A stretch of 64,000 nt of DNA, from IMG/VR virus record IMGVR_UViG_3300045988_153472. One strand, given 5' to 3'. Position 1 is the stretch's first letter. The number at the start of each line of letters is the position of its first letter. The notes under the pieces are model-generated. The model ran no database searches and was not told the DNA's origin. It was given only the letters and a program-made list of their open reading frames with translations. The translations under genes and the position numbers were made by a program. Positions 31,326 through 37,158 of the stretch are shown here, piece by piece. Origin of the DNA: a virus.

Positions 31326-32075
31326 TTATTTGCCTTTCTTTGCTTTCAGTTCCTGCAACTTTTTATTAATTTCATCATCTTTCATTTTCTTATCCAGACG
31401 CTGTTTTTGCACAATAGTAGAACTTTCATAAACGATCCTAGCTCCATCAGCAGCCTCTTTTTGCTTTTTAACTCCGTCACGTACTTTCTCTAGCATCTTT
31501 TCCTCTTCACTAGAAGATACTCCCGGTGTTACATTAAAAGCTTTTGATGCCTGAGCTGTTTCCAAAGTTAAAACAGCACTTTCTTTTTCTGCTTTTAAAT
31601 CATTAAGCTGTTGCTGTAATACTTCTACTTTTTCTTTCTGTACGTCAGCATTCTCTTTCCATTCTTTTAATGTACTCTTAATAAAATCAATCTTATCATT
31701 CAGCTCCTGTTGTTCTTTTAAGTAGACTTTTGCCGCTTCGTCATCTCCTCGATCCACACAAGCATTTACATTTACATCTGCTTTCATGGCATCTTTCTTC
31801 AAATGGAACAAATCATCTTCATAATTAGAAATCTTACCAAGCATCTGCTGATATCTTACATTCTCCTGCTGAAGTTCATCTTCTTTCTTCTCAATAGCGG
31901 CATTATAATATGCTTTAGCTCCTTCAGGTGTAGACGCATCTTTCTGAATCGCTTCGTTTGCCGTGCCAGATGCTCTTATTCTTACTCTTTTTCCAATTTT
32001 ACTATTAAAAAAGAAATAAAGTCCTACGAGTACTAAAATAACAATCATAACAATTCCTCCAGCTGTAATATTCAT
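31326..32075 (-). CDS. PspA/IM30-like coiled-coil protein with N-terminal TM helix
   Basis: A TM segment (IVMIVILVLVGLYFFF) followed by about 200 aa of heptad-rich coiled coil. Start overlaps the TerD gene. Confidence 0.35.
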   Translation of the reverse strand: MNITAGGIVMIVILVLVGLYFFFNSKIGKRVRIRASGTANEAIQKDASTPEGAKAYYNAAIEKKEDELQQENVRYQQMLGKISNYEDDLFHLKKDAMKADVNVNACVDRGDDEAAKVYLKEQQELNDKIDFIKSTLKEWKENADVQKEKVEVLQQQLNDLKAEKESAVLTLETAQASKAFNVTPGVSSSEEEKMLEKVRDGVKKQKEAADGARIVYESSTIVQKQRLDKKMKDDEINKKLQELKAKKGK

Positions 32076-32713
32076 TAGTCTCTCCCCTCATCAATATCAA
32101 GCCCAAAGTTTTTAAACAGTTCTGTCATACCTCCCACATAACCGGAACCTAATGCCTGGAATTTGAATCCATCTCCGTAACGGTATAATTTACCCATTTC
32201 TACTGCATTCAATTTTTCAAAGTTTTCATTCTCAGACAGATCATATTCATACTTATCACCATCTGGATTGTCGTAATCACAAATTGTCATAACTGCATTG
32301 GAGACCATTCCAAAATTCTGCATACGCTGTAAGGCCCTAAAAATTGTTAAGCAAATAGTAAATTCTGTTTTATCTTTCGGGAAAGTATCAGCATGCACAA
32401 TGAAATATTCGTCATAATGCTTTCCATTGAAAATCATTCCCTGGGAATCGTCACCAGTTTTATTGTCTCCTGAATAGTCTACCCAGGGATATGCAGAGCC
32501 ATCTTCATAGGTTTTATAGTTTACTAAATCTTCTGGATACACTACTTTACGGCTTGAATCTGTTAAAAATCCATTGATATCAAAGTCAATATCTGCTTCA
32601 CCAGCATAACGGTTCTGATCCCAATTGACTCCAATAAAGAAATTCTTAATGCCTGTACCATCTTCTTTTACCATACTAATTTTCTGATTTTTGCTCATGT
32701 TGATTACTGCCAT
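32075..32713 (-). CDS. terD: TerD-family protein
   Basis: 212 aa. GVNWDQNRYAGEADIDFDINGFL resembles the TerD GLGWD...DLDASAF Ca-binding core. Confidence 0.55.
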   Translation of the reverse strand: MAVINMSKNQKISMVKEDGTGIKNFFIGVNWDQNRYAGEADIDFDINGFLTDSSRKVVYPEDLVNYKTYEDGSAYPWVDYSGDNKTGDDSQGMIFNGKHYDEYFIVHADTFPKDKTEFTICLTIFRALQRMQNFGMVSNAVMTICDYDNPDGDKYEYDLSENENFEKLNAVEMGKLYRYGDGFKFQALGSGYVGGMTELFKNFGLDIDEGRD

Positions 32714-32730
32714 ATCTCTTTATCTCCTTT

Positions 32731-36121: not shown

Positions 36122-36123
36122 TC

Positions 36124-37158
36124 TTAAATCTCTCCTAATACAATTCTTTCATTGACAGACATTACAAATTCTTCTATAGCTTTATAATTTGGTTTATCAG
36201 GCAATGAGGTATTCTTTGAATCATACTCAAGTCTTTTCTCTAACTCGTTTACCATTTCAAAAAATTCTGGGATAGGCTGACTGTTTGCATCCAAATATTC
36301 TCCATTACGTAGAGCCATAAGAAGCTCATGATCATCTTCTCTATATGTAATAATTTTGCCTTTTTCAAGAATATCAAAACACATAAGATACAATCTCACT
36401 AAATGGCACATATGCTTTCCTAACTTATTATGTTCTATGGCATGCTTATTTCTCTTCCCAATTTTGGAATAATCCCTAACAATGTTTTTCATTTCGGCCC
36501 ACATCCCCTGATAATCATTCAAAGGGTAATGCTTCAACTGGATATCCATAAATACTTCTGTTTCATAATCTTCCTGAATACCTTTATCTACATAAAGCTT
36601 TATTGCATCTTCTGGAAAATTGAAATACTTTTCAGGGAAAGTATAAAAAGCATTCATAATACTATTAAGAACATGCTGCATTCTTTCTTCTTGTCCTAAT
36701 TTCCTGGCAGATTTATTATCGAGCCTTCTTAGCTGGCTTGTAGCATAGCCTCCAAAAGAATAGATCGCTTTCTTAGATAAAAACATTTCAGCATTATCAA
36801 GAAGTTCTTGACCAATTGGATGAATATAAAGATAATGTTCTGGCTTCAATCCTATCAGCTCAATTGTGTTTGGGTTGCAGTTTGACAATAGAGTTATCAA
36901 TTTATTAAAAGAATAGATTGTTGTATCTGTTGCTTCTTCCGTTACCTGATCAAAATTATGTGTAGGAATCAGGATTTCTTCTCTTTTATTTAAAGCACAA
37001 CCCCTAATATCCAGATCGGAGTTTTCTGTATCTGTACCATAAGCATGAGACCCACCTAAGCCTAATAGAATTATGTTACTCCCCAGGTGCTCATTCACTC
37101 TTAAGAAATCATAGTGTTTACTTTTCAATAACTTTTTGATTTTCTCTATTTTCATCAA
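36124..37158 (-). CDS. Pol-beta-superfamily nucleotidyltransferase
   Basis: GLGGSHAYGTDTENSDLDIRG matches the GS-x(n)-[DE]h[DE]h NTase motif. Start overlaps the upstream Zn-ribbon ORF and the stop abuts the ATPase gene. Confidence 0.5.
   Translation of the reverse strand: MMKIEKIKKLLKSKHYDFLRVNEHLGSNIILLGLGGSHAYGTDTENSDLDIRGCALNKREEILIPTHNFDQVTEEATDTTIYSFNKLITLLSNCNPNTIELIGLKPEHYLYIHPIGQELLDNAEMFLSKKAIYSFGGYATSQLRRLDNKSARKLGQEERMQHVLNSIMNAFYTFPEKYFNFPEDAIKLYVDKGIQEDYETEVFMDIQLKHYPLNDYQGMWAEMKNIVRDYSKIGKRNKHAIEHNKLGKHMCHLVRLYLMCFDILEKGKIITYREDDHELLMALRNGEYLDANSQPIPEFFEMVNELEKRLEYDSKNTSLPDKPNYKAIEEFVMSVNERIVLGEI

Follow-up and report, generated by a model that had tools for sequence, protein, structure and literature searches.

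A calcium pump, Ter-type proteins and an anchored PspA-like protein form a conserved cassette in SPbeta-like gut phages

We analyzed the 64,000-nt DNA of IMGVR_UViG_3300045988_153472 (hereafter the window), in which all genes studied here lie on the minus strand. The window carries a compact cassette that consists, in order, of a gene for a P-type Ca2+ pump of the PMCA type, genes for a vWA-TerF-like and a TerD-domain protein (replaced in many related loci by three TerD genes), a gene for a transmembrane (TM)-anchored PspA-like protein, and a mini open reading frame (mini-ORF) for a TM peptide of 27-39 amino acids, and that is closed by a stem-loop (Table 1). The order from the pump to the PspA-like gene recurs in 83 of 84 related loci, and the arrangement is therefore far beyond chance. 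We tentatively read the five-gene cassette as an abbreviated, phage-adapted module of the Ter membrane-stress type, which would provide calcium-coupled membrane protection to the infected or lysogenic cell. We put the probability of this reading at about 0.45.

A scan of viral contigs returned 159 relatives of the pump, 80 of which were fetched. Together with a genome scan and contig look-ups, they gave about 90 loci with a relative of the pump or of the PspA-like protein. The conservation counts cover the 84 loci with at least 3.3 kb of sequence downstream of the pump. In all but one of these, the PspA-like gene was found downstream of the pump in the same order and on the same strand, with one or more TerD genes, with or without a vWA gene, in between. 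The cassette occurs in two forms. Variant A, the form in the window, has vWA-TerF and TerD in the middle (38 loci), and variant B has three canonical TerD paralogues in their place (45 loci). An earlier reading of the window (hereafter the sequence-only reading) had missed variant B as well as the mini-ORF and the stem-loop, but had described the pump, vWA, TerD and PspA-like genes as a tight unit, and the linkage kept elsewhere bears this out.

The association was also seen from the other end of the cassette. A profile search with the PspA-like protein in 185,579 species genomes found nine loci. The eight with enough flank all consisted of a pump, TerD(s)/vWA and the PspA-like gene, with pump identity down to 47%; the ninth (L084) spans 1.2 kb, which is insufficient. 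With four further loci from the P0164 look-up, the pump stood beside the PspA-like gene in 12 of the 12 loci that had been selected by the PspA-like protein and had enough flank. Flanking genes differ entirely among lineages, and the order within the cassette remains unchanged.

The position of the pump is kept even where the pump itself is not. In the loci L090 and L091, the genes for DUF8224, RlaP, vWA, TerD, PspA-like protein and CCA enzyme share 92-100% identity (TerD and PspA-like 100%), whereas the pumps share 44.8%. Here a pump has been replaced in situ by a distant allele, which points to selection for having a pump at that position.

Some related loci deviate from the simple pattern. 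The 250,027-bp contig IMGVR_UViG_3300029402_000234 carries two paralogous cassettes (L004 and L021) with pumps 99% and 72% identical to that of the window, and three loci (L010, L012 and L017) are mosaic, with pump and vWA of one type and TerD and PspA-like of the other. These paralogous and mosaic cassettes suggest inter-copy recombination or chimeric assembly. Two copies, on contigs of 885 kb and 207 kb, are damaged: the pump is split into two ORFs in L092 (5758-8279), and an IS110-family transposase lies between pump and vWA in L093 (7008-8174).

All six ORFs named in the sequence-only reading were found in the window on the minus strand where that reading had placed them, and its description of the genes as separated by a few nucleotides or overlapping was correct. 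From upstream to downstream, the junctions are TAAgaATG, TAAaATG, a 17-nt spacer containing AAAGGAGA, and TAATG, in which the start codon of the PspA-like gene overlaps the TerD stop. The junctions thus range from -1 to 17 nt, and a purine-rich, Shine-Dalgarno-like run precedes each. Judging by this layout and by the hairpin kept at the 3' end, the cassette genes are probably co-transcribed. The pump starts 2 nt past the stop of a nucleotidyltransferase (NTase) gene in the window, but in lineages without the NTase the pump is preceded by a gap of 130-550 nt, and we therefore let the cassette begin at the pump. An Rfam search at the cassette, which included the Mn2+/yybP-type leader, identified no riboswitch or other element; Rfam matches elsewhere in the window were tRNAs and a RAGATH-27 RNA.

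Table 1. The cassette, its neighbors and the integrase-family genes of the window (aa, amino acids).
Feature	Position	Strand	Basis
Ca2+ P-type ATPase, first cassette gene, 873 aa, PMCA-type (P2B/LMCA1-like)	33500..36121	-	Pfam, TIGR01517, solved relatives
vWA-TerF-like protein, 255 aa	32731..33498	-	PF10138, E = 1.5e-59, 202 bits (cut-off 29.4)
TerD-domain protein, 212 aa	32075..32713	-	PF02342, E = 2e-34, 119.1 bits (cut-off 25.3)
TM-anchored PspA/IM30 (ESCRT-III superfamily)-like protein, 249 aa	31326..32075	-	Profile and fold
Mini-ORF, 27 aa, MIVLNIGMFVVCLLACFLVGFFVGKRK, single TM helix and basic tail	31241..31324	-	Sequence and conservation
Stem-loop at 3' end of cassette, core GGTGAGG-ttcaatt-CCTCACC, without U-tract	31193..31227	-	Sequence and folding
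RlaP-family (Pol-beta fold) NTase	36124..37158	-	PF10127, E = 4e-16; phrog_388
SPFH/Band_7 protein, N-terminal membrane anchor	28924..29895	-	PF01145, E = 3e-23; phrog_200
Integrase-family gene	53420-54331	-	phrog_5830
Integrase-family gene	55577-56584	-	phrog_216/phrog_1

The pump matched the Pfam families Cation_ATPase_N, E1-E2_ATPase, Hydrolase and Cation_ATPase_C, which together make up a complete P-type ATPase. It was the only protein that NCBIfam named. It just passed the PMCA-type equivalog TIGR01517 (510.1 bits, cut-off 507.05) and failed the SERCA-type TIGR01116 (316.9 vs. 703.4) and the PMR1-type TIGR01522 (411.1 vs. 798.3). The nearest solved structures were plant ACA8 (1.4e-104), Listeria LMCA1 (4e-91) and SPCA1, and the match to SERCA was partial. 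The "type IIA" label of the sequence-only reading was thus wrong, and the model scores point instead to a PMCA-type pump.

The catalytic motifs DKTGT, KGAPE, DPVR, TGD and GDGVNDAP are all present in the window pump. Apart from rare single substitutions, DKTGT, PEGL, KGAPE, TGD, GDGxND, FQLPIN in TM5 and NIIMD in TM6 are kept in 86 of 86 homologous full-length ORFs. Alignment with ACA8 and LMCA1 placed the ligands of Ca2+ site II, a Glu in TM4 (VPEGLPL) and Asn/Asp in TM6 (NIIMDSL), so the TM4 and TM6 residues expected of the calcium pump that had been predicted are present. The acidic residues of site I are missing: in TM5, a Leu within FQLPINISLL takes the place of the Glu of SERCA, and the TM8 position reads as Ala in the alignment. 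Because of their absence, the alignment indicates a single Ca2+ site, as in LMCA1 and PMCA; for the assignment of residues to sites I and II, we assumed the numbering of SERCA.

With LMCA1, PMCA and ACA8, the phage pump therefore shares its catalytic motifs, the Glu in TM4 and the Asn/Asp in TM6. It differs from them in lacking a calmodulin-type autoinhibitory, calmodulin-binding extension, in its NGE[T/S] loop, in being encoded by a phage, and in its operon linkage to TerD, vWA and PspA-like genes. Ca2+ export is a property of P2B/LMCA1 pumps, and the phage pump would likewise be expected to export Ca2+, although its specificity and direction are deduced from this kinship. An earlier viral example is the Ca2+-ATPase of chloroviruses. 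GenBank fragments labeled "Listeria/Enterococcus phage" also matched the pump, at about 30% identity; they are unannotated and may be host DNA.

The next two genes had been predicted to encode a vWA protein with a metal-ion-dependent adhesion site (MIDAS) and a TerD protein, and both assignments hold, with Pfam scores well above cut-off. The vWA protein additionally matched Copine in Pfam (6.6e-11). Its MIDAS (DYSGS...GGT...ITDG) is complete in the window and in 43 of 43 homologues, as is its N-terminal motif MGFLGKLFGKK. The TerD protein aligned end to end (residues 4-206) with the Klebsiella TerD structure 2kxt (E = 1.2e-22). As the canonical Ca2+ loop we take GDN(R/L)TG(E/A)GDGDDE together with DxDxD, a definition that we presume from the Klebsiella structure. 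The window TerD retains DIDFD and GDNKTG, and its acidic GDGDDE loop is replaced by the longer loop DDSQGMIFNGKHYDE, which marks it as a derived paralogue. All three variant-B TerDs have the canonical GDN(R/L)TGxGDGDDE loop. TerD is known to bind Ca2+, and MIDAS sites bind divalent cations; the particular TerD and vWA proteins of the cassette may accordingly be Ca2+ binders.

The prediction that the last large gene encodes a PspA-like protein was upheld by family profile and by fold, but the protein scored below the Pfam gathering score (28.7 bits for PF04012, PspA_IM30; gathering score 33.9). Divergent homologues from other cassettes scored 25.7 and 31.3 bits, and a related cellular TM-PspA passed with 42.4 bits. 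A profile built from 18 divergent homologues matched Synechocystis PspA/Vipp1 alone in the PDB (E = 2.7e-4 to 5.5e-4; next match 0.2). An AlphaFold2 (AF2) model, made from a relatively shallow alignment, consists of a TM helix (residues 4-24), a hairpin (50-109/112-180) with a predicted local distance difference test score of about 90, and further helices. In Foldseek, the top 15 matches of this model were all Vipp1/PspA, and Escherichia coli PspA (4whe) superposed with a root-mean-square deviation of 2.2 A over 119 columns.

Canonical PspA has an N-terminal amphipathic helix where the phage protein has its hydrophobic TM helix. Since a basic stretch follows this helix, the coiled coil is predicted to be cytoplasmic. 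PspA polymers stabilize damaged membranes, and from its modeled fold the phage protein may polymerize as well. The family is small and distinct, with 204 clusters in 1.84 billion representatives, nearly all of 240-270 amino acids. Its distant members are found in operons of the order ABC permease, ABC ATPase, unknown, TM-PspA and PBP/OmpA (NMT1/OmpA), and thus belong to the ABC/OmpA class of anchored PspA proteins surveyed by Ravi et al. (2024; PMC11237479), who also described the association with Band-7. The phage protein has the same fold as the proteins of that survey of PSP systems, in which TerD, vWA, P-type ATPases and calcium go unmentioned. One phage-like contig (L100, 5227-10318; L101, 3186-8277) carries the series Band_7, ABC permease, ABC ATPase, unknown, TM-PspA and OmpA-domain protein, as well as a split NrdD with a NUMOD4 endonuclease and a dUTPase. 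This is a second kind of phage-borne module of a transporter and an anchored PspA.

The mini-ORF starts 1 nt after the stop codon of the PspA-like gene in the window, and either 1 nt after it or overlapping it elsewhere. It was found in about 71 of the 84 loci as 30 distinct peptides of 27-39 amino acids with the motif MIVLNIG.F, always with one TM helix and a basic tail. It is kept even where the PspA-like protein is about 33% and the pump 47% identical, and is absent in a few sublineages. A stem-loop of 12-15 bp follows about 20 nt or less past the mini-ORF. For 51 distinct downstream sequences, the best hairpin reached a median of -17.3 kcal/mol, compared to -6.7 for shuffled sequences, and the structure is retained among lineages with varying stem sequence.

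Small membrane peptides are known partners of P-type ATPases (KdpF, MgtS/MgtR, sarcolipin/phospholamban), and LiaI is the anchor of LiaH. By analogy, the mini-ORF resembles them as a single-TM peptide of about 30 residues that shares an operon with a P-type pump and a PspA-type protein. It differs from all of them in having no sequence similarity to them, in being linked translationally to the PspA-like gene and not to the pump, and in being missing from some sublineages.

The sequence-only reading had extended the group by the upstream NTase and a nearby SPFH protein. For both, the family call (Pol-beta type and Band_7, respectively) and the position were right, but neither is part of the unit. 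The NTase adjoins the cassette in 16 of 77 loci, lies elsewhere in the locus in 27 and is absent from the locus in 34. In L090-L093, it is found near genes for a CCA-adding enzyme, PARG and an RNA ligase. It probably belongs to the scattered RNA-repair genes of the phage, which comprise an RNA ligase and a polynucleotide kinase, and in relatives a CCA-adding enzyme and PARG. A role as signaling or nucleotide-producing partner, as in Ter systems with a phosphoribosyltransferase (PRTase), was considered and rejected, as adjacency is lineage-specific.

The SPFH gene is present in 15 of 84 loci, and in the window NADAR, crAss001_48-like and small ORFs separate it from the cassette. We rejected it as a core partner on conservation, despite the Band_7 gene that adjoins the related TM-PspA operon in the other phage-like contig. 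Beside it are small predicted membrane proteins, all on the minus strand: a 62-residue single-TM ORF directly upstream (29895-30083) and two ORFs downstream (28070-28468, 132 residues; 27831-28073, 80 residues). These may form a separate, SPFH-centered membrane cluster.

The element itself had been taken for a phage, and its gene content confirms this. The window (GC content about 34%) encodes ribonucleotide reductase, DnaB, primase, Sak4, exonucleases, a ligase dependent on nicotinamide adenine dinucleotide (NAD), NAMPT, tRNAs and two integrase-family proteins, and its DNA polymerase is 48% identical to YorL of SPbeta. A temperate lifestyle would fit both the integrase-family genes and the occurrence of homologues on contigs of more than 1 Mb. 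Homologues in isolate assemblies carry Blautia or Ruminococcus labels and lie on contigs of about 140 kb to more than 1 Mb with phage genes in the flanks. Isolates with the element include Blautia sp. Marseille-P2398, Ruminococcus sp. AM36-2AA and Blautia faecis. We read the element as an SPbeta-like large temperate phage of gut Lachnospiraceae, the host being taken from these labels alone, and the carriers of the cassette as SPbeta-like large temperate phages of gut Bacillota. No GenBank phage matched the region in a megablast search. Every protein named in the sequence-only reading already had a PHROG family, so each gene type is known from other phages.

Several further features of the window, all on its minus strand, are listed here as side observations. 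The YorL-like polymerase is split into two ORFs (12604-13992 and 14824-17388) that match consecutive parts of phrog_405, with a 214-residue ORF (14071-14715) in between that may represent an inserted homing endonuclease, intron or intein. Genes related to NAD surround the cassette (41163-42638, 38627-39772, 30474-30920 and 51031-53067), the set consisting of NAMPT, an NAD-synthetase-like protein, a NADAR domain protein and the NAD-dependent DNA ligase; they suggest NAD salvage, possibly against NAD-depleting defenses. The RAGATH-27 RNA (46588-46675; 89.5 bits, gathering score 76.1) lies among tRNA genes and is kept in a related phage region on a Ruminococcus scaffold (L082, 14368-14453). A fifth tRNA-like sequence (47362-47434) scored 39.9 bits in Rfam and was not called by ARAGORN. 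Two paralogous small acidic proteins without family match are encoded side by side (37646-38029 and 38029-38424), with the N-terminus MKIR(R/K)GFVTNSSSSS(Y/F)II, and the next gene (37118-37636) encodes a Cys-rich, zinc-ribbon-like protein, also without family match.

The sequence-only reading had not recognized the gene combination as a described system, which is true of the fused cassette but not of its parts. Chen et al. (2026; PMC12880540) reported Ca2+ P-type ATPases from Jug phages, which also have three terD genes, one adjoining a pspA-like gene, in separate operons; they found the pump in 81 other huge phages and in four phages of 159-197 kb, some of them Bacillota-like. The window is not a Jug phage. 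Jug phages have genomes of 360-402 kb, a GC content of 27-30% and Bacteroides/Phocaeicola hosts, and we rejected this identity by GC content, the different gene upstream of the pump, and the SPbeta-like replication genes. The Jug pump is co-transcribed with an upstream ORF of 77-91 amino acids and the TerD regions are separate, whereas the window has pump, vWA/TerD, PspA-like protein and 27-residue peptide in one cassette. The main text of that paper contains no vWA-TerF gene, mini-ORF, in situ pump swap or link to cellular Ter clusters.

Operons carrying TerD, TerC, TerF and TelA were described in jumbo phages by Iyer et al. (2021; PMC7824862). They are likewise abbreviated phage Ter modules, with TerD, a TerF-type vWA and a sub-membrane component, for which membrane action against superinfecting phages was proposed. 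Unlike the cassette, they contain TerC and TelA, and the words "P-type", "PspA" and "calcium" do not occur in the text of that paper.

Two fecal contigs filed as "Bacteriophage sp." look cellular and connect the cassette to bacterial Ter clusters. MT836648.1 (L097) carries genes for methionyl-tRNA synthetase, TatD and capsule synthesis and a full Ter cluster of the order PRTase/TRSP, StiP, YceG, TelA, three TerDs and a P2-type ATPase. On MT840059.1 (L096; 59% GC), an ATPase is followed by three TerDs. A pump next to TerD is therefore found in cellular Ter clusters as well, and the variant-B phage TerDs are 53-63% identical to the TerDs of the cellular cluster. With classical Ter clusters (terZABCDEF or the Bacillus subtilis yceCDEFGH type), the cassette shares TerD paralogues, a TerF-type vWA, a membrane transport component and a sub-membrane helical protein. 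It lacks TerC, TerB, TelA, YceG and the PRTase/HAD genes; relative to cellular clusters, the P-type pump, the only polytopic membrane protein in the window, is in the place of TerC, and the PspA-like protein in that of TelA. The cassette is thus a derived variant of the Ter system and not a classical member, and it looks like a recombination of a Ter-type block of pump and TerD with a transporter-associated TM-PspA. With Anantharaman et al. (2012) and the 2026 supplementary tables outside the comparison, we did not find a description of the fused, conserved cassette of pump, TerD/vWA, PspA-like protein and micropeptide, of its two forms, of the pump replacement, or of the tie to cellular Ter clusters.

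If the cassette is a module for calcium-coupled membrane protection, Ca2+ would leak in through a breach in the host membrane. Such a breach might stem from the injection of phage DNA, from superinfecting phages, from pore-forming bacteriocins or effectors of abortive infection, or from a holin acting early. At the inner leaflet, this Ca2+ would be sensed or buffered by the TerD and vWA (MIDAS) proteins of the cytosol. Polymerization of the anchored PspA-like protein would stabilize or seal the bilayer, and the pump would expel Ca2+ and reset the system, so that the infected or lysogenic cell would stay energized. We infer both the coupling through the ion and the biological purpose of the cassette.

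A number of observations weigh against this reading. Ca2+ binding by the window TerD is uncertain, as the canonical acidic loop is lost. In the pump, the TGES loop of the A-domain is NGET in the window and NGE[T/S] clade-wide, with Gly-Glu retained and Asn as first residue. Mn2+ is transported as well by SPCA-type pumps with the same site II ligands, and it is the ion that TerC proteins export, so Mn2+ may be the real substrate of the pump. Identical TerD and PspA-like proteins beside pumps of 45% identity argue against specific contacts with the pump and leave the ion as the sole basis of coupling. The split and interrupted copies mean that the module is dispensable in at least some lysogens. 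Scans of the window for sigma-70 promoters and intrinsic terminators gave counts equal to those in shuffled controls. Finally, Jug phages have the pump and the pair of terD and pspA-like genes in separate operons (PMC12880540).

The same parts could also serve another purpose at another time, as a prophage-encoded, Ter-like exclusion or defense system that is expressed in the lysogen and blocks superinfecting phages or pore-forming toxins. Classical Ter systems confer resistance to phages, colicins and tellurite, and the carriers are apparently temperate, having integrase-family and SPbeta-like replication genes and occurring in isolate genomes and on contigs longer than 1 Mb. In situ replacement of alleles and mosaic cassettes resemble the turnover at conflict loci, and competition with superinfecting phages was the function proposed for the Ter operons of jumbo phages (Iyer et al., 2021). 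However, PADLOC models matched none of the nine proteins of the region, those of the cassette included. The cassette is also co-oriented within a long array of replication and nucleotide-metabolism genes, which suggests lytic-phase expression and not an independent moron, and a promoter of its own was not identified in the window, where the pump starts so close to the NTase stop. On balance we regard exclusion as unlikely, though a serious contender.

Somewhat less probable again is a plain ion-homeostasis module without damage sensing or repair, in which the pump would lower host cytosolic Ca2+ (or Mn2+) for replication and packaging, TerD and vWA would be cytosolic metal buffers, and the PspA-like protein and the peptide would aid insertion or stability of a strongly expressed, polytopic pump. 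The pump is the only enzyme of the cassette and always comes first, its alleles are exchangeable with the partner proteins unchanged, and the occurrence of the PspA branch elsewhere with ABC transporters is compatible with support of a transporter. Yet strict conservation of a PspA-like protein (in 83 of 84 loci) along with two or three proteins that bind Ca2+ exceeds what a pump should require. Cellular P2 pumps such as LMCA1 work alone, and in cells the corresponding arrangement belongs to a full Ter cluster of the stress type that includes TelA, StiP and PRTase. For the Jug pump, which is very highly transcribed, remodeling of the host cytoplasm was proposed (PMC12880540), in line with ion homeostasis. 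That the genes are adjacent cargo without shared function, held together by general synteny, is very improbable: related phages do share long syntenic stretches (in close relatives, for instance, NAD genes and an RNA ligase surround the cassette), and the NTase and SPFH neighbors behave in this way, but the constant order amid changing flanks, the two alternative middles between the same end genes, the in situ replacement of the pump, and the pairing of PspA-like protein and pump in 12 of 12 loci all contradict it.

The reading of the cassette as a calcium-coupled protection module can be taken further, to a prokaryotic or viral counterpart of Ca2+-triggered ESCRT-III membrane repair. TerD and the copine-like vWA protein would read the Ca2+ at a lesion and recruit or activate the anchored PspA polymer, the pump would remove the Ca2+ and switch the response off, and the micropeptide would tune pump or polymer. 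We consider this specific version improbable, but if it were true, the enigmatic Ter proteins would have Ca2+ as their physiological ligand, and calcium-signaled membrane repair would exist in bacteria and be exploited by phages.

Ter proteins have for decades been tied to resistance against tellurite, colicins and phages, with no consensus on how they work, and reports of phage-encoded calcium pumps date from 2025-26. The cassette places a Ca2+ pump, TerD/vWA proteins and an ESCRT-III-like protein in one small unit, which is kept intact while the pump allele is swapped. The carrier phages are abundant in human gut metagenomes and present in cultured Blautia and Ruminococcus isolates, which makes experiments feasible. 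A compact system of four to five genes thus bears on whether TerD acts via calcium, on whether repair of the PspA type is coupled to calcium, and on what phages gain from control of host calcium.

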